DNA of 64,000 nucleotides, taken from an uncultured Candidatus Peribacteria bacterium (GTDB lineage: Bacteria > Patescibacteriota > Gracilibacteria > UBA1369 > LOWO2-01-FULL-3). The DNA lies in NCBI GenBank assembly GCA_964480115.1, contig CAYZOB010000049.1, positions 23,712 to 87,711 on the forward strand. The letters are read 5' to 3'. Made by a program: the position numbers and the translations under genes. Below the pieces are notes generated by a model. The model was given only the letters and a program-made list of their open reading frames with translations, was not told the DNA's origin and did not search any database. Numbering within the stretch: position 1 is the stretch's first letter; every line of letters starts with the position of its first letter. Shown in pieces: positions 4,430-32,009 of the stretch.

Positions 4430-4545
4430 CAGAGCGCTTGCGCTCAATTACGACCGATGAAGTCGCATATCTTTCGGGTTTATTTATATCAGCCGAAAAA
4501 ATTGCTTGATCCGCCTGTTTGTCAGCCCTTCTTGACTTTTGCTTC

Positions 4546-4575
4546 TTGACTTTTACCCGGTTAAAAAGCTATAAA
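4546..4575 (+). promoter_or_regulatory. promoter candidate for the 4599 gene
   Basis: TTGACT (4546-4551), 18-nt spacer, TATAAA (4570-4575). The -35 lies in a tandemly duplicated CTTCTTGACTTTT motif (4528-4554). Confidence 0.35.
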
Positions 4576-4598
4576 AAAGCCTTGAAAATAATTTCCCC

Positions 4599-5174
4599 AT
4601 GAAACTTCCCGATCAGGATACCAATTACGTTATGACCACCTTTAAACCGGGTGAGCCGGATAAAAGGACAATAAAATTTTTAGGTCCACCGCAAGCCTCT
4701 ACAAGATTTTATGGGGGGGGATTAGGATTAGACGCAATGCGTTTCAAAGTAGGGGGGACTTCAACTGTCCGAGAGATAGGAGAATTTAATCAATGGCTTC
4801 CTGAGGGAAAGCGCGAAGCCGAACGGCAATTTCTTCTCTATTATTTTAGCGAGCTTATCGACGCTGTTTCTAAACTTGATGTTCAAAAGGCCTCTGCCAT
4901 ACGTGCCGAAGAGGCAAGATTTCAAACTTTTCTGCAAAAGTATGGCCACAAAGCACTCAAACGATATGAAAATGACCTTGCTGAAGTTGAGGATTTTACA
5001 GATGTCATCCTGAGCTTGGGAATGAATCCGGTCGATTTTGGTCTTGATGCTCCTCCAATTGCCAGTGATTTCCGTTTGATTGACGGTATTTGCAAAGGCG
5101 CCGGCCTTCGAATACATAAAGTGGTTGGTTCGAATAAATCGCTCTACGTTCAGGAGAGACCGTGTTCGTTTTAG
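4599..5174 (+). CDS. hypothetical protein (191 aa) containing a G8 homopolymer
   Basis: The ORF has a balanced, helix-rich composition. The antisense ORF 4761-5255 looks like a shadow frame. No family recognised. Confidence 0.55.
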   Translation: MKLPDQDTNYVMTTFKPGEPDKRTIKFLGPPQASTRFYGGGLGLDAMRFKVGGTSTVREIGEFNQWLPEGKREAERQFLLYYFSELIDAVSKLDVQKASAIRAEEARFQTFLQKYGHKALKRYENDLAEVEDFTDVILSLGMNPVDFGLDAPPIASDFRLIDGICKGAGLRIHKVVGSNKSLYVQERPCSF

Positions 5175-5372
5175 CAACACGTGAATATTTCCCGGCAATT
5201 TCCGTAAAACGCTGGAGTAGGAGAGAGCCCATTTATGAACCACGTGGGTGAGCATATACTCACCAACATTTTATCCATTTTGTCAGCCGAAAGTGGCAAT
5301 TTTGGTTGTAGATTTTTCATGAAAAATGGCACGATCAAAGTTGCTTTCAAATAAATTTTTAAATGAAAAAAC

Positions 5373-6650
5373 ATGCAAAACCAATCAATTCAACAACTAG
5401 GTATTAACGCCGATAAGCCTCACTATTTATCGGCCACACCTCATACTCTCAGGCCCACCACCAAACTGCCAAAATCCCAATCTAGTGATCAGCAAAACTT
5501 GGCCACACCTCATACTCTCAGGCCCATCACCAAACTGCCAAAATCAAAATCTTCAGATCACTCCTGGCGCACTGTCCACCAACAATTCACTGAATACGGC
5601 CGCAATGCCAAAGAATGGCTGCGCAAGTGCATTCTCCTTCTTCCCCAGATTGAAAAGCAGCAGATTTGGCGTAAAAAGCGTTTCAAAAACCTCTACGAAT
5701 ACGCGGCAAAATTGGCAGGCATGAGCCACTATCAGGTTGATGACGCTCTTTGGATTTTGAGGAAAATAAAGGACAAGCCGGAATTAATGAAAGTCGTAGA
5801 GGAAAAAGGACTAAATGCGGTTAGGCCTATTGTTGCAATTGCTACCAAGGAAAATGAAGCCTTTTTAGCTTCAAAGGCAAAAATCATGGATAATGGCACT
5901 TTAAGAATATTTGCAGGACACCTCAAAAAGGGAGAAGTAATAACATCCGACTCGATAGATTTACGGGATATCCCGAAATTTCAATCTGTAAACTTGCAAA
6001 GTTTACCATTCGACATATGTTTTGACTCAGCATCTCAAACCAAAATACCAAAATCCACCGATCCCTTGGAACCGCAATCAGATTCAGAGCTATTAGACCA
6101 GTCCTCAGGCTCTCTGCAATCATATTCATCATCTCACATGTCGTCATTTTCATGGTCTTTACAATTGCCACCAGCGTGTCCCTCCACCCCCAAAGTCACC
6201 ATCGCCATGCAGCTCGACCTGGAAATTGCCGATCAATTGCAAAAGCTCAAAGGCCAATCAGATTGGAACGAGACCATCAGCCAACTTCTCAGATTACGCC
6301 AAGAAAAACTAGACCAGTCAAAGCCTGAAGCGGTAGAAGCTACCTCCCGCCCCATCCCCGCCGCAATCGAAAGTTACGTCCTTGCCAAAACCAATTCTAT
6401 CTGCGCCTTTCCCGGCTGCTATTAGCCCTACGATATACTTCATCATACCGACAGATTTGCCATGTATCACATTCACGATCCTGATCATATAGTGCCTCTT
6501 TGCCAAGCGCATGAAAGATTGGCTCACCTTGGCTTGATAGAAAATGAAAATCTAGAGCCTAAATACTGGAAAATCCGCACCCTGCCGGATTACGACGACC
6601 CAAAATATGAAGTAGATCAAATTGTAGAAAAATTCAGGCGGCCAGACTAG
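5373..6650 (+). pseudogene. HNH-endonuclease-signature gene interrupted by a single in-frame TAG (6423-6425)
   Basis: ORFs 5373-6425 and 6462-6650 are in the same frame. Read through the TAG gives CAFPGCY*PYDILHHTDRFAMYHIHDPDHIVPLCQAHERLAH. This is a complete C-x2-GC ... HH ... LC-x2-H-x3-H HNH pattern split by the stop. Confidence 0.65.
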
Positions 6651-7232: not shown

Positions 7233-7673
7233 ATGATTGAAAACTTTCTGACTACAGAACAGGTTGCCAAAATTCTTCAGGTCCATCCCTTCACCATCTT
7301 GAAGTTTCTCAAGTTGGGTAAACTTCGGGGAGTGAAACTGGGTAGGGTATACCGCATCAAAGAAAGTGATGTTCAGGCCTTTCTCGACGGTCGCATGACC
7401 GGAGGGCATAAGCAAAATATCACCCCCCAGCAATCACCCCTCAATCCCGATCTTGAGCATCTGGAATCGCACAAAAGTGAGACAGAACCTCAACCTGAGT
7501 ATCATAATGAGTATCATAAGCTTTTAAATCAGCAATTCTCTAACCCTACATTATCGACTCAAGCCCACGCAAATACCCAGCATCTCTCAAAACCTCACTC
7601 GGAAACCTCTGACCCTTATACTCTAAGGCAAGATAAAAACCGGGAAGACGGACCACCACACTACATTATCTAG
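7233..7673 (+). CDS. excisionase-family (MerR-like) helix-turn-helix DNA-binding protein with a low-complexity tail
   Basis: The N-terminus LTTEQVAKILQVHPFTILKFLKLGKLRGVKLGRVYRIKESDVQAFL matches the excisionase/HTH_17 pattern. The C-terminal half is P/Q/H/S-rich. Confidence 0.65.
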   Translation: MIENFLTTEQVAKILQVHPFTILKFLKLGKLRGVKLGRVYRIKESDVQAFLDGRMTGGHKQNITPQQSPLNPDLEHLESHKSETEPQPEYHNEYHKLLNQQFSNPTLSTQAHANTQHLSKPHSETSDPYTLRQDKNREDGPPHYII

Positions 7674-8275: not shown

Positions 8276-8310
8276 AAAAACTCCCCGGTCTTGCCGAGGA
8301 GTTTTTGTTA
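8276..8310. terminator. bidirectional intrinsic terminator candidate
   Basis: AAAAA-CTCCCCGG-tcttg-CCGAGGAG-TTTTTGTTATT is an 8-bp stem with 1 mismatch, flanked by an A-run and a T-run. It lies between the + strand islet and the stop (8317) of the minus-strand operon. Confidence 0.6.
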
Positions 8311-8316: not shown

Positions 8317-9510
8317 CTATTCATCCCCACTACACTGCCGATCCAAAATTCTCTTGGAAAGCTTCAAACTATCGTTTAGAGGAGAGAAACTATTATTTAT
8401 TATCTCGAGTAAGCCATCATCGGCAATTCCCACTTGACGACCATCCAGACTGTTCAGGAATAACTCCATGCTCTGATCGGAAGCCAAACGATATAGCCCA
8501 TCAAATTCTGCTTTTAATTTGGCCGTATCCTGCTCAAATTTATAAGTGTCGTTGGCATTTTTCTTCGTCGATAAGTAATCCCTTTGGGAGAGACCACCAC
8601 CGCCGCCACCTCCACCACCGCCGCTCAGCTGCTTTTCAATAAATTTATCCGCTTCATCCAGCGCATCCTTGGGAGCCAGATCATTTACATTCACCTGCAC
8701 AATCGAGGACATATAGTCCGCAAAACTTTCATCGGTGGTAAAAAGTTCCACCGTTTTTATCGTTTTCAATTCCGTCCAAATAGAAGGACCTTTTCCGGCA
8801 GCATTGGCCGCGATCCCTTTTCCGGCTTCTTTCAGCCCCGCACCTTCACTGAAAAATTTCATGAATTCCTGCCATTTTACACCCACGCCTTCCCATGAAC
8901 TTTTTTCACAATCTATATACTGGTTTTTGCGCTCAGCATACTTATTTTCAAGATGCAGAAATAATTGATCGAAATCTTCCTGATTCAAAAAACTCCCATT
9001 TACATAGCTATCCCTCATATCGCTATATAGAACATTCCTGTCGACCATCGCCGCCTCTTTCAATAGTGCAGTTTGTGCCGCCGCCGGCAGCATTTTTTTC
9101 GAGATGATTTTCACCACATGCCTCACATAATAAATTTCCATCAATAATTTAGAATAGGCCTTTCTTAATTGGGGCACATTCTCATTGTTACAGGTCAAAA
9201 AGGCATTTCTAATCGCACTGCGTATTTTATCTTCCTGTTTTATCAGCGAATAAATATCATTGCTATGACACTGGTTTCTTACCAGCACATCATTCCACGG
9301 CTCCAGCACTCCTTCCACAAAGCCATCATTGTATATCAAACTTTTTAAAAATATCCCGAAATCAATTTCTCCTTTTGCAAAACATCTGATCACGCTCAAA
9401 TTTCCATCTTCATTATACACATTTGTGCTTTCAGCTTTGCTCACATTACTCGCCACGCTATTCAGCAAGAGCGTTAGCAATATACCAATTATGATGCTGT
9501 TTTTTTTCAT
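8317..9510 (-). CDS. exported hypothetical protein (397 aa), last gene of the giant-protein operon
   Basis: N-terminal signal peptide (MKKNSIIIGILLTLLLNSVASNVSKA), a Gly9 run and a C-terminal ...DRQCSGDE. The start overlaps the upstream stop (TAATG). Confidence 0.8.
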   Translation of the reverse strand: MKKNSIIIGILLTLLLNSVASNVSKAESTNVYNEDGNLSVIRCFAKGEIDFGIFLKSLIYNDGFVEGVLEPWNDVLVRNQCHSNDIYSLIKQEDKIRSAIRNAFLTCNNENVPQLRKAYSKLLMEIYYVRHVVKIISKKMLPAAAQTALLKEAAMVDRNVLYSDMRDSYVNGSFLNQEDFDQLFLHLENKYAERKNQYIDCEKSSWEGVGVKWQEFMKFFSEGAGLKEAGKGIAANAAGKGPSIWTELKTIKTVELFTTDESFADYMSSIVQVNVNDLAPKDALDEADKFIEKQLSGGGGGGGGGGLSQRDYLSTKKNANDTYKFEQDTAKLKAEFDGLYRLASDQSMELFLNSLDGRQVGIADDGLLEIINNSFSPLNDSLKLSKRILDRQCSGDE

Positions 9511-11363
9511 TAGTTTATGTCTGGTTTATTAAGAATTTCATCCAGAGTACCTTTGTTTATTTTCTTAAAGGTATCTTCGAAATTTTTGAATAGAGCATTC
9601 ATTTGTTTTATTTCCTGCAGTATGCTACGGGAATATACCATTCGGTTTGCCAGCTCATTACCAATCTCGTCAGACTCCACCCTTACTCCAGCCTCTGTTC
9701 CGGCAACGGCTTTCACATTGCGAATTCTATCGGCCAAATCGGATTGTCTCAATTCTCCATTGGCAATTTTTTCCTGTAATTTTAGATTAAAATTCTCAGT
9801 CAAATCCTGTCTGTCAGCGCTGTCAAAATGTAATTTATCCAACAAAGCCGGCTTATAAGTCTCGGAAAATTTATTCCATTCTTCCAATATATTCCTACCA
9901 AAAATCAGCTTATCATTCGATGGAGTGGGGATAGGATTCCAGATGGTAATAAATTGGATGTTCAATAGTGGAACGGCCACCGCCTGTTTGCATTTTGCCG
10001 ACTCCATCTCATTGCCGGTAACTTTATTTGGTATCAAAGTATGATCCAAAGTCTTTTTCAGATATTCATTTATTTTTTCCACTTCACAGAGAATGCAGCT
10101 CTCGCCCTGCATATAACCAGATAGAACTTTTTTGATAATTTTAACATCAAAGCAAACACTGGCTTTCATGGAAACGCTCTCACTGGTGTAATTTGCCGCC
10201 GCTACGCCTCCACCATCAATGAAATTTTCAACGGCTCCTCCGAGACTGTCAAATCCCTGCTCACCTATGCCGGCAAACACTCCGGGCTCATCCACGCCGG
10301 AACACCATCGTTTTTCCCATTTATCAATGGGTGCCGGAGCGATAGGTAAAGCTGGAGCGATAGCAGCTGGAGCAGTGGCGGCAGCTGGAGCAGTGGCCGT
10401 TTTATCTCCATTGCCATCACCACCATTTTCATCCACACCACCCACACCACCCCCATCACCATTGCCACTTTTCTTATCTCCGCTCTTCTTATTGCCATTT
10501 TTCGCGGCATAATCATTCAAAGCACTGGTCAATGGATCATTTGGAGCACATATGTCCTCATCCAGAACTTCCGCCGCCACTTTTTGATCTCCTCCAATAT
10601 CAATCAAGCCCTTGATACCACCAGGAGCATCAGTTTTCCCGCCGCCATCAGCACTATTTTTCTCATCGCCCAAAGGCAGGAAAGCTACGCCAAACTGATT
10701 ATCATTTGGTACGTTGGAATTTAGCAGTAAAGTTTTTTCATCCAGTGTTGGCTTAAAAGGCGAAGTATAGGCATCTTGATATAACCCACCAATTGTCACC
10801 GGAGATTTTTTCAGAAAAAGCACATCTTCAATCAATGCAAGATCATACACAAGATCAAATCCAGAATCATTCAAGTCATTATTGGCAAACATCTCCGCGG
10901 GTTTGACCTGCGTATCCAACTCGTTTTGAATTTGATAAAGCTCACTTAAATCGGCAAAATTTCTTTGCACTTTACTCATAACTTTCGCCGCATCCTCCTG
11001 GGACATTGTCGGATGTTTGGAAGAATTCAAAATCGGGGTCAAGCTGCCATTTACCACCAGTCGCGCCTGATCCACTGTCATGCCATTATTATTTGCAACT
11101 TCTTGCAGCGCACTTTTGCCGGAATCACTGGTTATTTTTTTATAAATCAGATTATATAGATTTTTGCCCTTCTTTGTAGCATCCGTAGGGCTGAAAATAC
11201 TTTTCCAGTCAAATGAGTTATTATCAATCCAGGAAACTGTGGTATTCCACCAGCCGGTATCACTTTCACCATGCGCCACCTGGTTGTTATCCACATAAAT
11301 CAATCCCGTGGATGTACCCACTCCCAGCATTAAACCTATAATGATTGGTAAGAATTTTTTCAT
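9510..11363 (-). CDS. exported hypothetical protein (617 aa) with a G/A/P-rich linker
   Basis: Signal peptide MKKFLPIIIGLMLGVGTSTG. A central low-complexity stretch (GDGGGVGGVDENGGDGNGDKTATAPAAATAPAAIAPALPIAPAP) is followed by a Cys-containing C-terminal domain. Confidence 0.8.
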   Translation of the reverse strand: MKKFLPIIIGLMLGVGTSTGLIYVDNNQVAHGESDTGWWNTTVSWIDNNSFDWKSIFSPTDATKKGKNLYNLIYKKITSDSGKSALQEVANNNGMTVDQARLVVNGSLTPILNSSKHPTMSQEDAAKVMSKVQRNFADLSELYQIQNELDTQVKPAEMFANNDLNDSGFDLVYDLALIEDVLFLKKSPVTIGGLYQDAYTSPFKPTLDEKTLLLNSNVPNDNQFGVAFLPLGDEKNSADGGGKTDAPGGIKGLIDIGGDQKVAAEVLDEDICAPNDPLTSALNDYAAKNGNKKSGDKKSGNGDGGGVGGVDENGGDGNGDKTATAPAAATAPAAIAPALPIAPAPIDKWEKRWCSGVDEPGVFAGIGEQGFDSLGGAVENFIDGGGVAAANYTSESVSMKASVCFDVKIIKKVLSGYMQGESCILCEVEKINEYLKKTLDHTLIPNKVTGNEMESAKCKQAVAVPLLNIQFITIWNPIPTPSNDKLIFGRNILEEWNKFSETYKPALLDKLHFDSADRQDLTENFNLKLQEKIANGELRQSDLADRIRNVKAVAGTEAGVRVESDEIGNELANRMVYSRSILQEIKQMNALFKNFEDTFKKINKGTLDEILNKPDIN

Positions 11364-11364
11364 A

Positions 11365-12051
11365 TTATTGACACTGACTGGTAGATGCGTCTACAAAGCG
11401 CACCGGAAATTCGGCCGCACGCAAACGTATATCTTTCAAAACTGATTTGTATTTTGTTAGCTGGTATAAAATTTCCTGGTACTTTATATGCATCGGGTAG
11501 GCCAGACGAAATTCGTTATAAGCGGAAACAGTAGCCTCCATCACGGCTTTTGCCTCCTGAGATTCTTGAATTGTAAGCTGAGCCCTTTGTTTAAGTATAG
11601 CCGAAAGTTGGCTTGCTGAAGGCATTTGACTGAAGTTGAAATCGGGATTTTTTTGCAAATAATCCAGCCTTTTCAAATAATCAGAGTACCTGCTCAGTGC
11701 TTCGATTGATAAGCAATAGCTGCTCAAATTTTGCTCCCCGCATTTTTGCAGAATGGTAGGAATATCGTCTTGGTCCAGCAGATTGTAAGGCGGCAGAAAC
11801 AGCTTTTTCTTCTCGGCATTCTGATAAAAATCCGGCTCGCTCACGAGCTCAATCAATTTTTCTATTTTTGCGTTAAAAAGATCATTCATTTCACCGTGAT
11901 AGCCACTGAAAGCCGTCAAGTAACTGCCAGCTGTTCTGAAATCTATTCTCGTTTCACCTTCGGCATAGATGGTATAGCCTCCATAGACGAACATAACAGT
12001 CAGCACGGCTGTAAAAAAAGTAACGAAAATTTGTTTCAAAAGTCTCATCAT
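11365..12051 (-). CDS. signal-anchored hypothetical protein (about 228 aa)
   Basis: The ORF extends to 12066, but the ATG at 12049-12051 forms an ATGA overlap with the upstream stop and yields MMRLLKQIFVTFFTAVLTVMFVYGG. Helical body, C-terminal ...STSQCQ. Confidence 0.7.
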   Translation of the reverse strand: MMRLLKQIFVTFFTAVLTVMFVYGGYTIYAEGETRIDFRTAGSYLTAFSGYHGEMNDLFNAKIEKLIELVSEPDFYQNAEKKKLFLPPYNLLDQDDIPTILQKCGEQNLSSYCLSIEALSRYSDYLKRLDYLQKNPDFNFSQMPSASQLSAILKQRAQLTIQESQEAKAVMEATVSAYNEFRLAYPMHIKYQEILYQLTKYKSVLKDIRLRAAEFPVRFVDASTSQCQ

Positions 12052-12647
12052 CCTGAAGTTATGCATTGTTTTAGAAAGCCCGGAAAAACATTTTTAAAAG
12101 CTGAGAAATATCCAAACATCTGTGAAATCGTCATGTTTAAATCTCTAAGTTGATTGTTTATCGCCTGATATTTTTCCAGCATTATGGTCGCGGTTTTTGT
12201 AGCGTTGGTTTGCTTTATATGATCAAATAAAAGCTTTTTTCCTGCTGAGTAATATTCTTCCAGCAGCGCGGAACATAAGCCAAAAGCGGCATTCGTGGCG
12301 GCTATGTTTGCCTGTTCACTATCAAAATTCAACCTGTCAAAAAGATTCTCAATATTAACCTTGAATTCATTGTAACGGGCTATCGCCAGATTGGTGAGCG
12401 AACTCGTACTGCTCTTATTCTGAAAAGTTTGATTCAGGAAATCCAGAAATTCTTTCAGCTCAATATCCATCAGCGGAACCAGGGTACTTTGACATTCACT
12501 GGACGGCGTATTATTCAATTTTCTCATCAATTGAGCTTTAACTTTTTCTTGAGCGCCGGCCTCGCCGGCCTCTCCGGCTGCCACCGCGACCAATGAGTGC
12601 GTCAGCAATACGCATATAACCCCGATTACAATTAAACATTTTTTCAT
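12048..12647 (-). CDS. exported hypothetical protein (199 aa)
   Basis: Signal peptide MKKCLIVIGVICVLLTHSLVAVAAG, helical body, C-terminal ...FLKQCITSG. There is a 1-nt gap to the giant gene stop. Confidence 0.75.
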   Translation of the reverse strand: MKKCLIVIGVICVLLTHSLVAVAAGEAGEAGAQEKVKAQLMRKLNNTPSSECQSTLVPLMDIELKEFLDFLNQTFQNKSSTSSLTNLAIARYNEFKVNIENLFDRLNFDSEQANIAATNAAFGLCSALLEEYYSAGKKLLFDHIKQTNATKTATIMLEKYQAINNQLRDLNMTISQMFGYFSAFKNVFPGFLKQCITSG

Positions 12648-12648
12648 T

Positions 12649-15600
12649 TTACTTGGTTATTGTTTGAATTTGCACCTCGTTACCTTTGGTGAAGATATAA
12701 GTTTTATCATTCGGTTTTATTTCATAATACTGTGGATAATACTTGGCAACAACGGGGAAAAAGACGTCTCCCGGAATTAAATCAGCTTTGTGCGTAAAGG
12801 TGGAAATACATGGACAGGCATTACATTCCGCGGGTACCAAATACAATCCCGGAACGCTCTGATTTTTACAGCTGTTCAATTTATCGTCATCCTTTTGATT
12901 GAGAGGATCACCACAATCTTCGACTTCCTTGCCATCATTTTTGCTTCCACCATCGGTATCGGGATTATATGGATCGGTGTGGTAAATATTTGTTTCCTCA
13001 TAGTTCGAAAGTCCATCCTGATCCTCGTCTATTGCATCATCAACCGGATCCAGAGGGTTTGTATGCATTGCAATCTCTTTTCCATCCTTCACTCCTCCCT
13101 GGTCGCTATCGGCATCTAAAGGATTCAAATTGTTGGTACATTCCTGCGAATTACTAAGTCCATCCTGATCCGGATCGGCTTTGGCATCGGTTATCTTATA
13201 TTTTGCCGCGCAATAATCCGTCAAGCCATCATTATTTGTATCCTGCTCGAAACAGTTATAGATGTCGAGTACCCGTTGCACCATTACCAATAATTCTCCG
13301 AAATTCATTAATTTAGCCGGATTTTTAGCCTCTTCTTCCGTGATAACAAAGTTGTTTTTTATTGGCTTACCACTTTTCAAATATGGCGTCAGATTTCTGG
13401 CGGCTTGCAAATAATCACCATACCACGGATCACCTTCTTTCAAGGAACTCATGTCGATAATCCCACGATATTCTAAAGCTTTGAGAATAATTTTTATCGC
13501 TTCGGCTCTCGTGATATTATTTTCCGGCTTGAAAGGTGATAGCCCCGAGTCATTTTTTTCTCCCTTGTAGCCATCAATAAATTGCAATAGTGTAGCTTCT
13601 TTAATATCCGGATGATAGTCACCAAGCAGCGCATTATCCGTATATCCACTACCGGAGACAAACGCTTTGTACGCTTCTTCACGTGGAATTACACAAATCA
13701 TTTTCAGCAGAACTTTTACGAAATCTTTTCTCTTTACCAGATCCTCCTGGGTGAATTTAAAGCTTGGATCAATGACATAATTTGCCGCATCGGGTCCTTT
13801 TGAAATAGCCAGCGATCCATTCAGTACACCCGCCGAAGGTTTGCGCGGACTCATCTGCGGTACATCATTTGCACCGATGATAGTCGCCGGTTTCAAAAGC
13901 GCCACATAGATTTCTCCTACAGTTTTACCGGCAAAATTAACATTTATAATCAAAGGATCATTCGCGTGGTCATTTATTTTTTGCGCTATAGTTAGCCGCT
14001 TATCAAAAATTACAACATTGCCTGAGCTATCAACAGAGGCCAGAACTTTATTTTCCGCAACATTCTTTAGCACGGCTCCACCGGGATTATCCGCGTCATT
14101 GGCCGGTAATTTTTCAAAAATAAAATCATCACTTTTATCCAAATCATCGATATTCACTCCCTTCAAATCCCCCATGTTTTCAGCCACAAAGCCAAAGTTC
14201 TGGTAAATATTTACATCACTGTTAGCATCGGCAACCATATATATAGTACCCAGAACTTGATCATTTTTATCTTTAATTTCTAAATTTGTTGGTGTATTGG
14301 GCGGGATAGCCTCATTGATAACCGCTTTGTAGCCATCTTCTATCGCACCAATATTGCCGGTCTTCGGATTAATCTCCGCCACCACTTCACCGTCGGCATT
14401 TTCCACCAAAATCATATCATCGAGGATTAAATCCCTTATAAAATATCCTCCACCGGCTTCGGTAAAGGCCTCTTTCAGCTTATCAATTCTTGGCACCAGC
14501 TTCAGCTGCCCATTAATCACTCTGGAAATATAGCGACTGCGCATTAACCAGAAAGGCAGCTCTGGAGTCTTTGGCTCCGTAGTGCCGGTCGCCTCGCCGG
14601 TAGCGGCAAAAGATTCATCAAGAGAAATAGCCGGCGCTATAACGTGAATGGTAATTTCTATACTGGAGTTTTTGCCGGAAGCATCGACCACATGCAGTAG
14701 GAATTTATGATCTCCAATGTCTCCCTCATTTTCAAAAGGGCCAATGTTAAAGTGTGAATTGGTCTTATCATTAAATGGGAAGCCATCTCCATCTTCATCA
14801 ATCAAAACAGTCACGTCGCTGCCCAGAATTTTTGGCATTGGCGTAATCTTTAATTTATCGCCCGTATTCGGATCGCTCTGACTACTTTCATATGGCATTC
14901 TTTCCAGATAATACTGCTCTATTTTACCATCAGGATCAAAAGATCCGCCGGCATCGATTTCCAGATTTTGGAAAATGGAAATTGTATATTCGGTGGAATT
15001 TATCACCGGCATCGGCGACTCGTTATCCGCGCAGGATTGAGGAGCGGCGATGACTGTATCGGAAATCAGCGATTTTTCATCATTGGAATTCACGGCGAAA
15101 ACATTGACGTAATAATTGCCATTTGGGACATTCTCGGAAATTCTTGGTGAATTTTTATCACTCAAAGCACTGACGATTACCTTGAAATTATAGGCGGCAT
15201 TTTCTATGTCATCATAAATTGATTTTCGCAGCACAATTTCATAGCTTACCGCGCCTTCGACAGGCAACCAGCTAATATCAAATTTACCCGTGCTGATAGC
15301 CGGAACTGCCAGACCATCCACGGCAATACCTCCCTTGTTTACAAAATCTCCCACCGCATTATTCGTTAAGCCTATAATCAACTCGCCTTCCGGCAATTTG
15401 AGATTGTTGGCCGGATTATAATTAGTCTTCAAATAAATATCTCCACCGGTGGAATATACAATGTCATAATCCTGATCATGATCCACGTCGCTGAAGAGAA
15501 TATTGGTTTTACCTTTCAGTTCCTTGGTGTAATTGAGCACATTTTCACTAACAGTGCCGGCGCTTACATAGAATCCTATTGGTGGCGGAGTAGGTGCATT

Positions 15601-18600
15601 TGCATTGTCTACGATATCCTGCGGCGAGAAATTAATGGCGGCGGCGATCAAATCACGTTTGCCTGATAAATCAGCATTTTCAGCAGCCTGCTTGATGGCA
15701 CTCTCAACTTCTTTGCCAAGGAAACTAAAGGCTAAAGTTTTGCCGACCTCTCCCACATTACTTCCGGTCACATCATTTGCACTCGGGTTTGCGGCAATCA
15801 AATCGACTCGCTGTGAATTATTATCAACTAAAATTTTTCCGAATTCATTGTAATCGTCTATTTCTTTCAGAACTCCATCGGTAGCTTTCAAACCTTTGGT
15901 ATAAGCGATCATCTGATCTCTTAAGGCAGCCATTTGCAACAAACCCGAAGAATTCGGCAGATTTTCATATTTAATGGCATTTTCAATTTCCGCAAGACTT
16001 CGATTCAAAAGTGGATTACTTGAGTCGATAAACTTTTGCGTGGCAACAAGATTGTAAGTATCAGGCCCCTTGTTTTTTTCCAGCTCCGCGACATATTGAT
16101 TCATTTCCACCCGGATATTTTCCATCTGGAAATTTTCCATCTGGATATTTTCAAAGCTCAAAGGCTTATCCAATTTCTTCTGCACACCATTTTGAGCCTT
16201 ATCTATTAAAGTCTGAATATACTTATTGACAATTTGGCCATATGGCAGAGAAGTATACTTATTAATGTTTCCGATAAATCCGGCCACGCCGTCATTCCAA
16301 ATTTTCGCACCCTTGTCGGCAGCCACATAGATAAAATTAGTATCAATAGTGAAGTTCAATTTACCATTAATTCTAATCTGATCCACATAGCTGTACTCAA
16401 TGGGTGGGAACTGCACACCCAGATTTTTTACAATTGGCAGTACCACTTGAACATTTGGTTGAGTCATTGTTTCAATTTCTGTCTCAAGCAATGTTTCCGG
16501 AATAAACAATTGACCATTTTTCAATAAGCACAAGATTTTGAAAATAAATTTCAAATTAGTCATGAATTTACCCACGAAATTTGGTAATGCCGGAATCTTT
16601 GGTGGCTTCGGTAAATCCGGCAATTGCGGCAAAGGTATCTGGGGCAGATCTGGTAAATTCGGCAAACTGAAATCCGGAAATTTAGGTATATCAATCTGAA
16701 AATCAAGCTTTCCACCAGTAAGGGCATCCAAATCGAAATTCAAATCCACCGGCAATACATCGGGCAGATTTATATCCGGCAAATTCGGCAAAATTATTGG
16801 CTCCGGCCTGAAAACCACATCCGGCCATATTATCGTTACGCCGGTCTTTATTTGTGAAAAATCCACTACGACATCAGGCAACTTTGGCAGGGGAATAATT
16901 GGAATATCCGGAATCACGGCAAAGAGTTGCAGCAAAAGTCCGAGCTTGCTGAAGCGATCATTCTTACATTTATCACAGGACTGCTGATACTCCGTCACCG
17001 TATCCATGATTATCTTCCACTGTTTGAAAGTGCGAATGGTATCGCGAATAGCTTTGGTCCATGATTCAACAATCTTTTGCTGACGGTTAATATAGCCGCC
17101 GGTATACTGCATTATCGCATCCAGATAACAAATAATCTGCGTCGCATATTTAGCCTCCACATTTCTCCAATGCAAAATATCTTTTGGTAAATTGGCTATT
17201 TTATCCAGGGCATCCATAAATTTTCTCACCGAATTAATCAATGTCTGCATGTCCACCGTAATCGCATCACAAAAAGTCTGGCGATTTTCATTTTTCTCAC
17301 AATCCCAAAGCTTATATTTCTGTAATTCACTTTCCATATGCTTAATCCAGGCATCAGCTTGATACTTGTATTTGGCTATTTCTTTTGGCGAAATGGCCGG
17401 AATTTTAATGATTATTTCTTTACCTTCCAGTTTTACAAATGGAAAATTACTTAGGCTGGTGGCAAAATCATTGAACCCTCTGAAGCTGAATTGTTGTGCT
17501 GCCAATTTGCTTTCCTGACCCACCCTGGAAAAATCCGGCAATACGAAATAGAAAGTGGGGAAGCGTAATAATTTTGTATATATTTCATCAATTTCACCAT
17601 CCAGCCAATTGGTGACCACGCTTGGGAATCCCGGCACTTTAACATTTACTTTTGAAGTTGCAGAAATCGGATCACGGGCATTGCCCCAGCTACCGCCGGT
17701 ATCCACGCCTTTAGCGCCACCTGCACCCTGACCGTCTATGATTGCAGCCGATTGACCGGTTTCCACATTCACCACTGCTTTACTCGCAGCTGAAATCACC
17801 CCATGAACAGCCTGCTTTACCGCCGCACACACTCCGGGTATTCCACCGGGAACTGAAAAGGCAAAACATCCGCCGACACCGTTTGGTCCTGCGCACGCTG
17901 CACCACCCAATCCTAAAGTTGTTGTGGGAGAGATGTAAAATCTGAAAAACGAATTTGTACCAATGGAAGGTGCAAATGGTAGAACATATGGAGGATAAGG
18001 CACGATACTCACCGCCGGCAATCCAGGAATAGCCCCATCCTGAGCCAATAAAGCATAATTATAGGGAATTGGCAGACAACCGCCTCCCGAGCAGCGCAAG
18101 TTTGATAAGGTATTTTCTATTCCTGTAGCTAAAGCCTCACCACTGCTTTGCGCGGTTATCAAAATATCACTCCATTTATCCGCACAGCCGTTATAGTCTT
18201 TATCTTGATTTTGGCTGGCGGCAAACTTTTTGAGCATGGCAGCCATCTCCGGTGATACCTCCCCTTTGGCACTTGCTGCGATTATCTCGCTTGGAGACGG
18301 CAACCCCAATTTTGCAAAAGTATCATCCACGGCATTGCTGGAATTATCCGCCGGAGTCGTCTCGAATTTCTCATATTTCTCTGATTCTACGGAATAAAGA
18401 TAAGTAATTATTCCATCAGGATTCACTTCCGGCCTGATCATAATATCGCCATAAAGATCGTTGTTAGATGGATCATCCTTATTCGCCGTATATTGGACGA
18501 AATTATTGCCAAGCTCGAAATGAATTTTCGGCACCAGATTCACAATCATTTTATAGCTGATAATTCTTTGTCCGCCAGCCGGCACGCTGATATTTTTAAT

Positions 18601-27109: not shown

Positions 27110-27808
27110 TCATTTCAGGCTTTCCAAACGTGCTTTTAGTAAAAATATCGTATCCGTTCGCAATTTAGCTCTTGCCCAATCCTTTTGCGGTTCGCTAAGC
27201 AGTTCACCCAGACCGTTAAGAATATTTCTGTTACTCATTTTTGCAAGTTGATCCAGGCATTTCTCCAGCAGTTTTTTCATAGACAGTTCGGCTCGCTGCT
27301 TGATAAGATCGGCATTAATTGGCCAATCTTTGTCAAGAAAAAACCACAAATCATAAATATCACGACTTGTTTTTCCAATCCGTTCATTCATTGCCATCAA
27401 CTTGTTTGCAAACATATCCTCCTGAACCATGACCAGCATCGAAACACCAAGATGATTTTTAAGTACATAATTAGAGGTAGACCCATGTTGATTTATCTCA
27501 ATCTTGATCTGTTTTTTTCCGCTCCCATATGAGAGCACGCACAAGAGATTAAACCGCTTATCCGCAATGTCTTTTATTGTTCCATATTCTTTTGCAATTT
27601 GCTCTATTCTTTTGAAAACAACATCTTTTTTTTCAGGATTAAGCAGGTCAAAATCCAGATCGACCGAAAAACGACTCAGATTATAGAATATCATGGCTGC
27701 CGTACCTCCTTTAAAGCCCAAGAAAGGGGCAATCGAAACATCAGAATAGATATCCTTCAGGATACGGAACATTTTATTTTTATGTATCGCGGTATCAAAA
27801 GCCTCCAT
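27110..27808 (-). CDS. abiEii: AbiEii/AbiGii-family nucleotidyltransferase toxin (type IV TA)
   Basis: FKGGTAAMIFYNLSRFSVDLDFDL matches the characteristic GGTAL...RFSxDLDF nucleotidyltransferase motif. Size is 232 aa. It sits 3 nt downstream of the AbiEi-like gene. Confidence 0.8.
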   Translation of the reverse strand: MEAFDTAIHKNKMFRILKDIYSDVSIAPFLGFKGGTAAMIFYNLSRFSVDLDFDLLNPEKKDVVFKRIEQIAKEYGTIKDIADKRFNLLCVLSYGSGKKQIKIEINQHGSTSNYVLKNHLGVSMLVMVQEDMFANKLMAMNERIGKTSRDIYDLWFFLDKDWPINADLIKQRAELSMKKLLEKCLDQLAKMSNRNILNGLGELLSEPQKDWARAKLRTDTIFLLKARLESLK

Positions 27809-27811
27809 GTG

Positions 27812-28423
27812 TTATGCGTTATTTTTTTGATATTCAGAAAGCAATTTCACCCTTTTTTCCATGCGCTTCTTATCATATATCGGCAAAATTTCAAACACCT
27901 TATCCCAATTCAGTGAGTTTAAATTGTCAAAATGATATTCTTTATTGATATAAATTGTGTCTAGAAATGCACGTTCCGGAGTAGCGACAGACGTTTGATC
28001 TTTAAATTCAATACCTGCATTATTTGTTAAAATTGAATCCTTCATTTTTTTGTAAGCATAAATTTGTTCACCTATTACCAATTCCCTGGTCTGATACGAA
28101 GCTAAAAATATTTGGCTGTAAAATTGAAAATTAATACCCGCTTCTATCAGCACGGTTTCAAAACTTATATATGATGGAGTCAAAATTCTGGTTGAAAGCT
28201 CTTGTTTATTATAATTTTTGTCCTTGGCATAAATCCCTCTGCGAATACGATATAGTTCACCAATTTTTACATAATAATTAATTTTACTCACTACTGATTT
28301 CTTATTATCCGAACCCCAGATGAGGCAAACATCTTTAAAAGTAAAAACCGTCTTGTCTGATCTTAGTAACTTGGAAATTGGCTTTCCTGTTTCATTCATA
28401 AGCTGAACATTAGAATAATTCAA
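27812..28423 (-). CDS. abiEi: AbiEi-family antitoxin / transcriptional regulator
   Basis: The size, its position directly upstream of abiEii, and the AbiEi_4-like segment (KIGELYRIRRGIYA) support the call. The ORF-track start at 28423 is TTG; an in-frame ATG lies at 28399. Confidence 0.65.
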   Translation of the reverse strand: MNYSNVQLMNETGKPISKLLRSDKTVFTFKDVCLIWGSDNKKSVVSKINYYVKIGELYRIRRGIYAKDKNYNKQELSTRILTPSYISFETVLIEAGINFQFYSQIFLASYQTRELVIGEQIYAYKKMKDSILTNNAGIEFKDQTSVATPERAFLDTIYINKEYHFDNLNSLNWDKVFEILPIYDKKRMEKRVKLLSEYQKNNA

Positions 28424-28530
28424 ACCTTTAGCTCACTATATGCGATTTGCACTGAATATGCAAGCAGCAGTCTTTTCATACCATGCAGGACTTAGACTAA
28501 TAATACCCATTTATGGCCATTAATGGTTCA

Positions 28531-28573
28531 AATTATTTTATATTCACAATTGACCGTCGACGGTCAATTGAAT
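28531..28573 (-). promoter_or_regulatory. 43-bp repeat copy 1: 24-bp perfect palindrome plus promoter-like hexamers, upstream of abiEi
   Basis: aattattttatattcacaattgaccgtcgacggtcaattgaat. The palindrome CAATTGACCGTCGACGGTCAATTG spans 28547-28570. On the minus strand, TTGACC in the palindrome is followed about 19 nt later by TATAAA. Confidence 0.6.
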
Positions 28574-28663
28574 CACTTCAATCTCTTCAGAGCCGGACGT
28601 CCTAAAATTGACCTCATCTGATCAATAGCTATTTGATTCATTAGCAGGATTATCAGCTTTCTC

Positions 28664-29665
28664 CTATTCCAAAAGCCTCTTAATTTCCTGTTCTAGCTCG
28701 TATTTTTTTGGTAAATACAGCTGATATTTTGAAACAAAAAGCTTGTTAGAAATACCACCAAGGGCATACTGAACAGCAATGTGTTCTTTTTCTGCTGATA
28801 AAATGATGCCAATTGGATCGTTATCATTTTTTGTATTCTCTTCGCTTTTAAAATAGTTTAAATACATATTCATTTGGCCGATATCTCCATGATCAATTTC
28901 ACCAATTTTTAAATCAATGATTACGAAACATTTCAGAATCCTATGGTAAAAAACAAGATCAGCATAAAAATGCCGATTATTAATTGTCATTCGAAATTGT
29001 CTTTGAACGAAAGTAAATCCCTTACCTAATTCCAAAATAAACATCTGTAAATTATCAATTATTTTTTGTTCCAGTTCTTTTTCGGAATATTTATAGTTTT
29101 CAGCAATTCCTAAAAATTCGAGAACATATGGCTCTCTGATGATGTCTTGTGGAATTTCTATGATTTCCCCTTGCTTAGAAAGTCTTAGAACTCCTTTCTT
29201 GTCTTTACTTAAGGCTATCCTTTCAAAAAGCATAGAATTTTTCTGTCTTTTAAGTTCACGAATTGACCACTTCTCCTTGATACACTGTTGCTCATAGAAA
29301 CTACGCGCCAGATCATAATCTACTTTTAAAAGTTCAAAATAGTGACTCCATCCCAACTGGTGAGACACTGTCTCACCAATTGGGTATTTTATATAAAAAA
29401 GGCGCATGTAGGTAAGATTGCTTTTGCTAAACCCCTTTCCGTAGCAAGATAATCCTCTTGATAGCTTATTGAGTATTTTACTGCCATATTCAGAAGTGAA
29501 TTTCCCTTTTTGTTCAAATTTCACGATCCTTTTGCCAATTTCCCAGTAAGTTTGAACTAAAATATGGTTTACAGATTTGTAAGCTTTTTTTTTACCCTCT
29601 TCAAAAATCGACCCGATATCTTGAATCAGGTATTTATAGTCTTTTTGTGAATAAAGTTTTGTCAT
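28664..29665 (-). CDS. DUF1016 / YhcG-type PDDEXK nuclease-domain protein
   Basis: The N-terminal helical region (VNHILVQTYWEIGKRIV ... WSHYFELLKV) and the C-terminal PD-(D/E)xK-like core (FYADLVFYHRILKCFVIIDLKIGEIDHGDIGQMNMYLNYF) are typical of the family. The ORF-track start at 29686 is TTG; the ATG at 29665 is preferred. Confidence 0.8.
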   Translation of the reverse strand: MTKLYSQKDYKYLIQDIGSIFEEGKKKAYKSVNHILVQTYWEIGKRIVKFEQKGKFTSEYGSKILNKLSRGLSCYGKGFSKSNLTYMRLFYIKYPIGETVSHQLGWSHYFELLKVDYDLARSFYEQQCIKEKWSIRELKRQKNSMLFERIALSKDKKGVLRLSKQGEIIEIPQDIIREPYVLEFLGIAENYKYSEKELEQKIIDNLQMFILELGKGFTFVQRQFRMTINNRHFYADLVFYHRILKCFVIIDLKIGEIDHGDIGQMNMYLNYFKSEENTKNDNDPIGIILSAEKEHIAVQYALGGISNKLFVSKYQLYLPKKYELEQEIKRLLE

Positions 29666-29762
29666 TGCAATCTGTATAGCAGACAAATCTAAAATTTTCT
29701 TAAAATAAATCTAAAATTTTTCTAAAATTCTTAAAACCCAGGCTCTCCTGCATGAAAACATG

Positions 29763-29805
29763 AATTATTTTATATTTACAATTGACCGTCGACGGTCAAT
29801 TGAAT
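29763..29805 (-). promoter_or_regulatory. 43-bp repeat copy 2 (1 mismatch), upstream of the YhcG-type nuclease gene
   Basis: aattattttatatttacaattgaccgtcgacggtcaattgaat. The identical 24-bp palindrome spans 29779-29802. Confidence 0.6.
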
Positions 29806-29904
29806 TGGAAATTCACGCCCACACAATTTCGCATATTAAGCCTAGCGTAAGCACCAAAATTAGAAGCACCCCACCCATCCCGGCAGAGATTAAATTGATC
29901 TCAC

Positions 29905-29959
29905 AAAAAAGCCCGACCTCATCCCTGCTCCGGCAACTGCCGGGTAGACTGATCGGGCT
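29905..29959 (-). terminator. intrinsic terminator candidate after the pilin gene
   Basis: The minus strand reads AGCCCGA ... (inner hairpin CCGGCAgtTGCCGG) ... TCGGGC followed by TTTTTTGTG, starting 17 nt after the pilin stop. Confidence 0.55.
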
Positions 29960-29975
29960 ATGAAAACAAAATTTA

Positions 29976-30521
29976 TTACTGCACGTTAACAAGCAAGCAA
30001 TAAGCTGGCCCATCAGCAGCAGGAACAGCTCCTGGAGTCAGGGCGGGAACCGCAGATGCTTTGACATTCTTACACCCTATATTCGCATTATCTATACTTT
30101 CAACAGCTGCAAACACTGCCGCCGTAAATTTCAGTCCTGCCGCGTATTTAACATATCCATATTGACCTGTACATGAGGGGTTGCTGCCTGTTGTCACATT
30201 AGCTGTCTTTGGATCTACCGGAAAAGTTCCACCAAAATCAGAAACGTTTGTACTAATTAAATTGCCAATAGTACCAGCTGCACCAGTAGAATCAATACAC
30301 GTAATCGTACTCACACCTCCGGGCAAACTAACTCCTGTCAATGATTTATTTAACAAAAATCCGGTAATCTTATTTACTTGAGCCACCCTTTGCGTATCCC
30401 TGGCTTTCTGAGGCGCACCAAGCAGGCTTGGCAAGAACGCCACGGCCAATACCGCGATAATAGCGATTACAATTAATAACTCGATCAGGGTGAAACCCTT
30501 TTTAGCATTCAGACTTTTCAT
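29976..30521 (-). CDS. type IV pilin (prepilin with N-terminal methylation motif)
   Basis: MKSLNAKKGFTLIELLIVIAIIAVLAVAF is a classic G/FTLIEL class III signal with a hydrophobic alpha1 helix. The globular part has four Cys. The ORF extension to 30713 has no support. Confidence 0.9.
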   Translation of the reverse strand: MKSLNAKKGFTLIELLIVIAIIAVLAVAFLPSLLGAPQKARDTQRVAQVNKITGFLLNKSLTGVSLPGGVSTITCIDSTGAAGTIGNLISTNVSDFGGTFPVDPKTANVTTGSNPSCTGQYGYVKYAAGLKFTAAVFAAVESIDNANIGCKNVKASAVPALTPGAVPAADGPAYCLLVNVQ

Positions 30522-30755: not shown

Positions 30756-32009
30756 CTACAAGTTCGAACTCAAACTCGTCAGCTTCATGATCGGCAGCAT
30801 CACGGCCGCCACCACCGTGCCTACGGTCATACCGATCACGATCAGGATAATAGGTTCAATAATCTTGGAAATTCCGGATACCGCCGTGTCCACTTCATCC
30901 TCGTAAAACTTGGCCACCTTCGCTGTAATCTCGTCCAGTTGCGCCGTTTTTTCACCCACATCGATCATATTCACCAGCATCGGTGGAAAAAGATCACTGC
31001 CACTCAGGTTTTCCGCCAGGGGAATACCCTGCTTGATGTCCTCAGAGGAGGATAAAAGTCTCTTTTTATAGACCTCGTTGCCGATTGAATTCGCCGTAAT
31101 TTCCAGCGTCCTTACTATCGACACATTACTATCCAATAAATTACTTAACGATCTTGCAAATCTGGCCAGATAAGCTTCTTTAAACAAATTACCGAATACC
31201 GGTAGTCTCAATTTCAAATTATCCAAAGCGTATTTTCCCATTTCGGTCTTTTTGAAAAATGAAAAGAAAATGAAAATTGCCACCACGCCCAATAAAAGCA
31301 AAAATCCATGATTGATCATAAAATTACTGATTCCCACTACGATCTTAGTCACCAAAGGTAAATCTCCTTTCGCCGCCGCAAATAATTCCGTCAACTTTGG
31401 AATTACGAAAATCATCAGGCCGCTCACTACCAAAATCAGCAAAACAAAAATTACCACCGGATACATCAGCGCGCTTTTTACCTTCGCAGTAATGGCATAA
31501 GCTTTCTCGGCATCCAGAGCCAGATTTTCCAATACTCTGCTCAGCTGTCCGGAAGCTTCGCCGGATTCCACCATGCCGATTTCCGGCTCCGTAAAAACTT
31601 TTTTGTAATCAGACATGGACACCGATAAGCTACTGCCGGACTCGATTTTTTTGGCCAAATCCACCACGACCATCTTCAGGCGCGGACTGTTTTCCATCTG
31701 CTGTGCCAGAGATTTTAGCGACATTACCATCGGAATTCCCGAATTGATCATCACCGATAAAAGATGCAAAAAAGTCGCTTTATCCTTCACTTTTACTCCC
31801 GATTGAGAGAGAAAGTAATTATTGACCTTCTTGTACCAATTCACGAGCATATTTCCGCTCACCACCCTCTCATCCAGACCGCTTTTATCCAGAATCACCG
31901 CCGCCTTTTCTTCCTGAATATTGAGCACGACATGTTCATTGGACAATTTCTGTCCATCGAGCTGAAAGGCCTCGGTCCCCATTGTGGCAAAATCTTTTTC
32001 GTTTGGCAT
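30756..32009 (-). CDS. pilC: type IV pilus platform protein PilC (GspF family)
   Basis: Two GspF-type repeats with three TM segments, about 400 aa, adjacent to the GspE-family ATPase. Confidence 0.85.
   Translation of the reverse strand: MPNEKDFATMGTEAFQLDGQKLSNEHVVLNIQEEKAAVILDKSGLDERVVSGNMLVNWYKKVNNYFLSQSGVKVKDKATFLHLLSVMINSGIPMVMSLKSLAQQMENSPRLKMVVVDLAKKIESGSSLSVSMSDYKKVFTEPEIGMVESGEASGQLSRVLENLALDAEKAYAITAKVKSALMYPVVIFVLLILVVSGLMIFVIPKLTELFAAAKGDLPLVTKIVVGISNFMINHGFLLLLGVVAIFIFFSFFKKTEMGKYALDNLKLRLPVFGNLFKEAYLARFARSLSNLLDSNVSIVRTLEITANSIGNEVYKKRLLSSSEDIKQGIPLAENLSGSDLFPPMLVNMIDVGEKTAQLDEITAKVAKFYEDEVDTAVSGISKIIEPIILIVIGMTVGTVVAAVMLPIMKLTSLSSNL

Follow-up and report, generated by a model that had tools for sequence, protein, structure and literature searches.

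Gene order and boundaries of the locus

We analyzed a stretch of 64,000 nucleotides (nt) of DNA, called the window here, from an uncultured Candidatus Peribacteria bacterium (contig CAYZOB010000049.1, positions 23,712 to 87,711 of the forward strand). The subject of this work is a block of five genes on the minus strand of the window, in which the gene for a giant protein of 4784 amino acids (aa) is followed by four small genes whose products we call p199, p233, p617, and p397. The five genes together are referred to as the cassette and the four small proteins as the partners of the giant protein. An earlier reading of the sequence by a model (the original prediction) had described five co-directional genes with junctions of –4 to +1 nt behind an uninterrupted lead open reading frame (ORF) of 14.35 kb, and both parts of this description were confirmed from the list of ORFs and by direct inspection of the letters at each junction.

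In order from the giant gene to p397, the four junctions measure +1, –4, +1, and –1 nt. The giant and p199 genes are separated by a single nucleotide at 12648 (TAA-a-ATG), and the p199 and p233 genes share an ATGA overlap at 12051–12048. A second 1-nt gap, at 11364 (TAA-t-ATG), lies between p233 and p617, and a TAATG overlap at 9512–9508 joins p617 to p397. Because of the ATGA overlap, the p233 ORF probably starts at its sixth codon (ATG 12051), which gives a protein of 228 aa, and the homologs agree with this start. The public record of the giant protein (P0083) begins one codon later than our ORF, at GTG 27000, and thus has 4783 aa; it is otherwise identical.

The original prediction also placed a hairpin at each end of the block. 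The downstream hairpin stands: it folds with –19.2 kcal/mol (z = –4.0), none of 200 shuffled sequences folded equally well, and it is flanked by A5 and U5. The upstream hairpin at 27062–27096 is weak (–14.1 kcal/mol, z = –1.3, with 20 of 200 shuffles folding equally well). It follows the end of an AbiEii toxin gene at 27110 and is therefore best taken as the terminator of that gene and as lying outside the operon. From the tight packing of the genes and these hairpins, we infer that the five genes probably form one co-transcribed operon. The coordinates of these and other features are collected in Table 1.

Table 1. Window coordinates of the cassette, of regions within the giant protein, of the pilus genes, and of the inserted island
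Feature	Position	Strand	Basis and remarks
Giant gene	12649-27003	-	ORF, 4784 aa, TTG start at 27003
Ig-like repeats (Invasin_D3, Big_1, GH2_C5-type)	21439-22020, aa about 1662-1855	-	Pfam segment scan
FG-GAP/VCBS repeats	19384-19575, aa 2477-2540	-	Pfam segment scan
Conserved core	16204-18201, aa 2935-3600	-	Conservation profile; invariant cysteines including CxxC; proline-rich LPDLP stretch
SLH-like wall-binding region	13459-13746, aa about 4420-4515	-	Weak match in the window, strong in orthologs
TSP3 (bacterial thrombospondin type 3, calcium-binding) repeats	12904-13236, aa about 4590-4700	-	Pfam
p199 gene	12048-12647	-	ORF, 199 aa
p233 gene	ORF 11365-12066; probable gene 11365-12051	-	ORF, 233 aa; probably 228 aa
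p617 gene	9510-11363	-	ORF, 617 aa
p397 gene	8317-9510	-	ORF, 397 aa
Closing hairpin, bidirectional, intrinsic-terminator-like	8276-8310	both	Fold energy, A5 and U5 flanks
Type IVa prepilin (MKSLNAKKG/FTLIELLIV, cleavage after G)	29976-30521	-	Pfam N_methyl
PilC	30756-32009	-	Pfam T2SSF
PilB-type ATPase	32030-33271	-	Pfam T2SSE
PilO	33272-33889	-	Pfam PilO
PilN-position protein, 420 aa, bitopic	33892-35154	-	Position; no Pfam match
YhcG/DUF1016 PD-(D/E)XK nuclease (island)	28664-29686	-	Pfam
AbiEi antitoxin (island)	27812-28423	-	Pfam
AbiEii toxin (island)	27110-27808	-	Pfam

Conservation of the cassette and properties of its products

To place the cassette among its relatives, one genome per species was scanned, which gave 80 loci carrying the cassette. 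Iterated profile searches were run on the ORFs of the relatives' loci, and 87 related loci were assessed. The complete order giant, p199, p233, p617, p397 was found in 60 of the 87, and contig ends, frameshifts, or masked bases account for every exception among the others. Within the limits set by the contigs, each locus with a giant gene also has all four partner families, and no departure from the gene order was seen, which bears out the fixed cassette supposed in the original prediction. The same order with tight junctions recurs in about 80 species-level genomes. Median junction gaps across 64–78 genomes were +4, +1, +2, and –1 nt, values that are biased toward small gaps because the start codon nearest to the upstream stop was picked. 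With p617 as the query, 74 homologs were obtained, all of them unnamed and without Pfam domains, and six distant homologs that were checked (down to 30% identity) sit among the identical five genes in the identical order.

The position of the cassette is also fixed, with the ribosomal protein genes L10/L12 and pilus genes on one side and HTH_17 and UvrA genes on the other. No relatives of p617 were found in 2.9 million viral contigs. On the basis of this and the fixed chromosomal position, carriage of the cassette by a prophage or mobile element was rejected. Homologs of all five products come from metagenome-assembled genomes (MAGs) labeled Candidatus Peregrinibacteria, Peribacteria, or Gracilibacteria, and the housekeeping genes of the window include those for ribosomal proteins L10 and L7/L12, HisRS, TsaD, RecJ, UvrA, and MiaA. 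The small-genome host that had been presumed is a bacterium belonging to the candidate phyla radiation (CPR), of the Peregrinibacteria. Two contigs bearing the cassette (L053 and L054) are filed as Nitrospirae/Nitrospirota MAGs; these are probably binning contaminants, because all other matches are Peregrinibacteria-like. The cassette, present in practically all of the Peregrinibacteria genomes examined, belongs to the core genome of the CPR class Peregrinibacteria/Peribacteria.

The giant protein was compared with Pfam in a whole-length scan (expectation value, E, up to 0.1) and in a segment scan (E up to 1). Its Ig-like repeats matched Invasin_D3 with 40.9 bits (cut-off 33) and Glyco_hydro2_C5 with 35.9 bits (cut-off 32), and the FG-GAP repeats matched FG-GAP_3 with 43.3 bits (cut-off 26.9) and FG-GAP with 39.7 bits (cut-off 22.1). 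Weak DUF11 and PDZ-like signals were also seen in the segment scan. Orthologs of the giant protein begin with standard Sec signal peptides with AxA sites, and the protein of the window has hydrophobic segments at its N-terminus and at one marginal place (aa 3352–3372) only. A long low-complexity stretch (22200–22990, aa about 1340–1600) separates the conserved N-terminal region from the Ig-like repeats; Gly, Ser, Asp, Asn, and Ala predominate in it, with runs such as GAGA, NGNGNG, and SGGGSGG. An N-terminal GDIPLP...PYTDF...WHG motif recalls gingipain-like (C25) domains; Pfam gave no support for this and we make no claim from it.

Near the C-terminus, the S-layer homology (SLH) match in the window is weak, at 17 bits against a cut-off of 20.8. 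This region aligns with orthologs that carry the domain (PF00395), which was found in 41 of 50 orthologous C-termini with a best E of 7.2e-16. Repeats of the TSP3_bac family score 24.3–24.7 bits in the window (segment match at aa 4661–4681) and occur in 35 of the 50 orthologs (best E 4.5e-80). They are followed by a Cys-rich C-terminal domain (CxxCPC) with invariant cysteines. The frequency of SLH and TSP3_bac among the orthologs suggests that a region close to the C-terminus attaches the giant protein to the wall. Anchoring by sortase is not indicated, since the protein ends in ...KGNEVQIQTITK, without an LPXTG motif or a terminal hydrophobic segment. Together, the Sec signal, the Ig-like and FG-GAP repeats, and the C-terminal SLH and TSP3 regions uphold the original view of the lead product as an envelope or surface protein.

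A conservation profile was made from the C-terminal fragments of 51 related genomes, with identity expressed relative to the protein of the window. From aa 2400 to the end, the protein is alignable throughout. Mean identity is 0.4–0.6 over aa 2400–2600 and 2950–3550, and the FG-GAP repeats fall within a strongly conserved region (aa 2400–2650) with a mean identity of ~0.5 over the 51 species. The giant protein is a single-copy ortholog conserved along most of its length, which speaks for a conserved machine rather than a variable adhesin; the description of it as a mosaic has to be given up.

The core at aa 2935–3600 is one of the two best-conserved stretches of the C-terminal half and contains no Pfam domain. 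An exhaustive HMMER search with it gave 395 clusters at 50% identity, nearly all of them proteins of 3000–6000 aa with the core at the same relative position. A few much shorter proteins of 600–1100 aa on long contigs match the core region only (P0224, with 617 aa on a 76-kb Joint Genome Institute contig, P0215, and P0210); these may result from a split or a frameshift in the gene, or the core may also occur by itself. AlphaFold2 with an alignment of 70 rows gave a usable model of the core, with a predicted local distance difference test (pLDDT) score of 77 and a predicted template modeling score of 0.53. Foldseek found no match to this model in the PDB (best E 4.9) or in BFVD (best E 0.6).

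In each of the four partners, the only hydrophobic stretch lies at the N-terminus and precedes a small-x-small site, as it does in nearly all of the 69–76 homologs per family. A later segment resembling a transmembrane helix occurs in just one of 289 partner-family sequences. This pattern suggests that the partners are Sec-exported, or at least anchored by their N-termini outside the cell. Neither Pfam nor NCBIfam gave a match to the four single sequences of the window, and scans of 52–60 members per family gave scattered weak matches in which no family recurred. Comparison of the family profiles with PDB sequences gave nothing credible (best E about 0.001–0.002), and no confident match to known export, S-layer, or pilus families was found. 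The original prediction that the four are exported proteins of no named family is therefore well borne out. The class III prepilin motif was present in 0 of the 289 partner sequences compared with 43 of 45 of the locus's own pilins, and there was no N_methyl match in Pfam for the partners or the giant protein, so that none of the five looks like a type IV pilin or minor pilin.

Two of the partners, p199 and p233, are distant paralogs (hhalign probability 93%, E 2.8e-7, 142 columns), and an iterated p199 profile also pulls in the p233 family. Both are helical. In p617, a conserved helical N-terminal part and a conserved C-terminal part with six cysteines and a SCILCEVEKI motif enclose a variable middle rich in Gly, Ser, and Pro. 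The conserved cysteines are C52, C125, and C195 in p199; C109, C118, and C232 in p233; C272, C354, C404, C423, C426, and C458 in p617; and C43, C81, C107, C201, and C393 in p397. These cysteines (3, 3, 6, and 5) are invariant or nearly so in the family alignments. Three of the four partners have an odd count of conserved cysteines with one of them no more than five residues from the C-terminus, which would fit intermolecular disulfides.

An AlphaFold2 model of p617 with 52 homologs was poor and unusable (pLDDT 53), and Foldseek with this model returned noise only. An origin of the partners from the giant protein was rejected because hhalign and hmmsearch were negative, and an origin from the lineage's PilN-like, PilO, or pilin families was rejected on negative hhalign results. 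As a side observation, p617 and p397 contain Gly-rich linkers like those of the giant protein (poly-G at about aa 297–306 of p397).

Pilus genes, inserted island, and flanking genes

Upstream of the giant gene lie genes of a type IV pilus, preceded by the genes for L7/L12 and then L10. The upstream context in relatives was obtained from a metagenome scan with the N-terminal region of the giant protein followed by tblastn of the window's upstream proteins. The conserved block in relatives consists of PilN-like, PilO, PilB, PilC, pilin, giant, and the four partner genes. The pilin gene stands upstream of the giant gene on the same strand in 58 of 62 non-identical loci, and PilB and PilC are both present in 28 of the 30 loci that have at least 6.5 kb of upstream sequence. 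At the level of the locus, therefore, the cassette is a conserved member of a same-strand gene cluster with pilin, PilB, and PilC. Locus L131 keeps the pilin gene next to the giant gene even with no PilB or PilC within 9 kb. The claim that the cassette is self-contained cannot be demonstrated, since relatives place it directly behind the pilin and the PilN-like, PilO, PilB, and PilC genes. The PilN-position protein has one transmembrane helix followed by long helical regions, and no actin-like PilM gene is visible in the pilus cluster.

In the window, an island (27110–29686) sits between the pilin and giant genes and is followed by the weak hairpin described above. The GC content drops to 0.336 at 28001–30000 compared with about 0.42 elsewhere. 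Relatives have no such island here, and their pilin and giant genes lie side by side. Two other loci have occupied gaps of their own. In L137, the gap (about 2243–4674) holds three ORFs with N-termini that look PIN/VapC-like by eye, and the gap of L154 (about 2140–2415) contains a small ORF that resembles RelE/YafQ when inspected by eye. The gap therefore resembles a hot spot for the insertion of toxin or defense genes, and evidently no read-through from the pilin gene is needed for the giant gene to be able to work.

Downstream of p397, HTH_17 was found in 47 of 48 loci, UvrA in 47 of 48, and PrsW in 45 of 48. The small HTH_17 gene (excisionase/MerR-type; 7233–7673, plus strand) and the end of the cassette face each other in convergent orientation, and its constant position makes it a candidate for a local regulator. 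Frozen synteny, as for UvrA, could also explain this adjacency. Between it and UvrA are two ORFs of 191 and 350 aa without Pfam matches (4599–6425, plus strand). The 350-aa ORF is present in just 3 of the 48 related loci and looks like another strain-specific insertion.

The window also encodes other proteins related to the cell wall. With its strong SLH domains (E 1.7e-27), a 450-aa protein (41240–42592, minus strand) is a more conventional candidate for an S-layer or wall protein. Regarding the wall polymer and the pyruvyl transferase (CsaB) that go with SLH binding, the window itself offered this second SLH protein and an LCP-family ligase. Near it are genes for an LCP-family ligase (50221–52377), a polysaccharide deacetylase (53151–53954), and a PGA_cap protein (56167–57321), which suggest a wall-polymer system that SLH domains could bind. 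A 370-aa protein (46548–47660, minus strand) has a sub-threshold match to bactofilin, with 24 bits against a cut-off of 27.9.

Function of the cassette and comparison with known systems

We consider it somewhat probable (about 0.55) that the giant protein and its four partners form a Sec-exported, SLH-anchored complex, stabilized by calcium and disulfides, that is used in contact with host or prey cells, probably together with the pilus. Because the four partners are unlike any known family, this is probably a lineage-specific apparatus for host attachment. In the mechanism that we propose, the tight and overlapping junctions would couple translation so that the giant protein and the four partners are made together, and all five products would leave the cytoplasm via Sec with ordinary signal peptides. 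The C-terminal SLH region would then tether the giant protein to wall polymers, the probable ligand of this region, with the calcium-binding TSP3 repeats and the FG-GAP repeats stiffening it. The Ig-like domains, the FG-GAP region, and the large conserved N-terminal region would project outward. The four small, mostly helical, Cys-bearing partners, two of them paralogs, would remain associated with the giant protein, either as assembly factors or as subunits in stoichiometric amounts. They would probably be stabilized by disulfides and probably dock on the 670-aa core; complex formation and disulfide linkage among the five products are suggested by the conserved cysteines and co-conservation of the families. 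The assembly may contact the host or prey cell alongside the type IV pilus, such that the pilus reaches and pulls and the giant complex makes the close-range bond.

The tie to the pilus is favored by the shared strand with pilin as the direct neighbor, by the pair kept in L131, and by precedents in Omnitrophota and Saccharibacteria, and the anchoring in the wall is favored by the separate SLH protein and the LCP-family ligase encoded in the same window. Several observations weigh against the proposed complex or parts of it. In the window, the SLH and TSP3 regions of the giant protein do not score above the Pfam cut-offs. A generic scan for promoters and terminators gave no enrichment over shuffled sequences, so the transcript boundaries are drawn from the two hairpins and the packing of the genes only. 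The housekeeping flanks (L10/L12, HTH_17, UvrA, PrsW) are as frozen as the pilus genes, so adjacency alone is no proof of a tie to the pilus, and the island with its hairpin between the pilin and giant genes of the window indicates that co-transcription with the pilus is not required. SLH anchoring speaks against a giant protein that travels on the pilus, and the attachment role is read only from the Ig-like and FG-GAP domains, types that are also present in wall proteins without adhesive function. A fusion of p617 and p397 in one locus (L087), which would have suggested interaction of the two, spans a masked run of N and was discarded as an artifact.

The same data can be read in other ways. 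The pilus machine might itself deploy the Sec-exported, non-pilin giant protein and its partners as cargo or as a tip complex, either loaded on the pilus tip or driven across the wall and S-layer as the filament grows, so that the ten genes encode one apparatus. PilY1 with minor pilins and TcpF/CofJ with type IVb pili are precedents for such deployment. The pilin–giant adjacency in the 58 loci, with the giant gene first after pilin, and its retention in L131 fit with this possibility, and so does the fact that the best-conserved recognizable domain of the giant protein consists of FG-GAP repeats of the beta-propeller type. There are parallels in that the giant genes of Omnitrophota follow T2SS-like loci and that PilX2 of Saccharibacteria has a beta-propeller and no prepilin signal (PMC11623550). 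We nevertheless regard this as unlikely, given that the partners lack the class III motif carried by nearly all of the pilins, that no PilY1, TcpF, or CofJ family was among the reported Pfam matches of the giant protein (E up to 1), and that hhalign finds nothing linking the partners to the PilN-like, PilO, or pilin families. SLH anchoring suits a wall-resident rather than a mobile protein, and the equally frozen housekeeping synteny and the tolerated island and hairpin count here as well. A related proposal, which we likewise regard as unlikely, is that the giant protein and partners are an undescribed Peregrinibacteria extension of the type IV filament machinery itself, a wall-embedded, disulfide-stabilized extracellular structure with a fold without known relatives at its center, which the pilus would thread through or would deploy in order to grip host cells.

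A purely structural role, in which the five products are housekeeping parts of the wall or S-layer for anchoring, spacing, or a division lattice and have no part in host contact or pilus function, seems to us improbable. It would explain why the giant protein occurs as a single copy throughout the class and is strongly conserved instead of changing fast, with no hypervariable region of the sort typical of host-recognition adhesins (low-complexity linkers aside), and it would suit the SLH and calcium-binding repeats and the location in a core-gene block of frozen synteny. Against this, the conventional 450-aa SLH protein is the more ordinary S-layer candidate, a protein of 4,784 aa that carries Ig-like and FG-GAP modules would be an unusual subunit for an S-layer lattice, and papers on related CPR organisms tie giant surface proteins to host attachment, by inference only. 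Delivery of a contact-dependent toxin or polymorphic effector, with the small genes encoding chaperones or immunity proteins, is one sense of the contact-dependent system named in the original prediction and is very unlikely indeed. All that speaks for it is the general layout, in which small genes come after the gene of an exported giant in a bacterium that is presumed to live on other cells. Pfam scans of the five products gave no Rhs/YD, hemagglutinin-repeat, toxin, or immunity domain, and there are no two-partner-secretion or type I secretion system (T1SS) genes nearby. The giant protein's C-terminus (SLH, TSP3, CxxCPC) is conserved, not polymorphic as in the contact-dependent inhibition and Rhs systems, and the small proteins are exported, not cytoplasmic, and are one-to-one orthologs in about 80 species.

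The wall-anchored complex that we favor can be compared with several known systems. It resembles the SLH-anchored, S-layer-associated proteins of monoderms in having an N-terminal Sec signal and an SLH region for non-covalent attachment to the wall. It differs in that the SLH region lies near the C-terminus of 4,784 aa, with TSP3 repeats and a Cys-rich domain after it, and in having four obligate partners without a family and a core with a predicted fold that has no detectable relative. A giant repetitive surface protein that is co-encoded with proteins for its export, anchoring, or function is also known from sprCDBF of Flavobacterium, SiiE of Salmonella, and LapA of Pseudomonas. These rely on components of the type IX secretion system (T9SS) or of T1SS and on an outer membrane. 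By contrast, T9SS and T1SS components are absent among the window ORFs scanned, and the features here are those of Sec export and SLH anchoring. In particular, the cassette does not resemble a T1SS RTX adhesin; no ABC transporter, membrane fusion protein, or outer-membrane-factor genes were found in the scanned window ORFs, there are no RTX repeats, and the N-terminal Sec signal is present.

Among proteins linked to pili, TcpF of Vibrio cholerae and CofJ of enterotoxigenic Escherichia coli carry Sec signals, are encoded at the distal end of a pilus operon, and need the pilus for their deployment. Both are small and soluble and come from diderm bacteria that have pili of type IVb. The pilin here, with its short leader and GFTLIE, resembles type IVa, and the Pfam scans showed no sequence relation to TcpF or CofJ. 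PilY1 uses a beta-propeller and mediates binding, and in the systems studied it works with minor pilins. In Saccharibacteria, it has been proposed that pili act first and close-range surface adhesins afterward, and a pilus locus there encodes the non-pilin beta-propeller protein PilX2 (PMC11623550). The giant protein is like PilY1 and PilX2 in being a non-pilin with Sec-type export encoded in a type IV pilus locus; the beta-propeller of PilX2 is thought to mediate binding (PMC11623550), and the giant protein has FG-GAP repeats of the beta-propeller type. Unlike them, it is roughly 4–5 times longer and SLH-anchored, and its four partners have no prepilin motif. Neisseria_PilC and T4P_PilY1 were not reported among its Pfam matches (E up to 1), and the generic FG-GAP families were the only ones of this type, so that it does not qualify as a PilY1/PilC tip adhesin.

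A parallel in arrangement is found in Omnitrophota, whose giant proteins are far larger, some of them exceeding 30,000 aa. Giant genes in that lineage are generally preceded by a locus resembling a type II secretion system (T2SS) or type IV pilus with class III signal peptide genes (bioRxiv 10.1101/2023.11.21.568195). Both cases share a filament machine with a GspE/GspF-like ATPase and platform and class III genes directly upstream of the giant gene, an arrangement conserved in a lineage of ultrasmall, presumably host-dependent bacteria, and inferred adhesion-type domains. In Omnitrophota, the proteins contain divergent SecA DEAD domains and cross the membrane many times, and a secretin, GspD, is encoded in their loci (West-Roberts et al., bioRxiv 10.1101/2023.11.21.568195). 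By comparison, the giant protein here has only a cleavable signal peptide, and its locus has no secretin; Pfam scans and hydrophobicity gave no SecA/DEAD match and no numerous transmembrane regions. This comparison is one of gene arrangement and domain content. No four-gene partner set has been described for the Omnitrophota loci.

In bacteria nearer to the host of the cassette, giant surface proteins have been described in Vampirococcus (PMC8080830), and large extracellular cysteine-rich proteins have been described without functional assignment in Peribacter (PMC4736985). A survey placed Peregrinibacteria among the bacterial phyla richest in proteins of more than 5,000 aa and gave none of these a functional category (PMC11573180). 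Full-text literature searches returned no description of the cassette or of its link to a pilus locus. The general category, a giant surface protein with accessory genes beside a type IV filament machine, is thus already known, and what is new is the four partner families, the fold of the core, and the fixed ten-gene arrangement. For the uncultured Peregrinibacteria, this turns an orphan giant protein into a defined, class-conserved system of five exported proteins behind a pilin gene. From the parallel with Omnitrophota comes a hypothesis of general reach: in ultrasmall host-dependent bacteria, the type IV filament machine and the giant surface protein may act as one unit. If the giant protein and its partners do extend the filament machinery, they would be a monoderm, CPR counterpart of the T2SS-linked giants of Omnitrophota, and a module of type IV filament plus giant protein would have evolved more than once for predation or episymbiosis.

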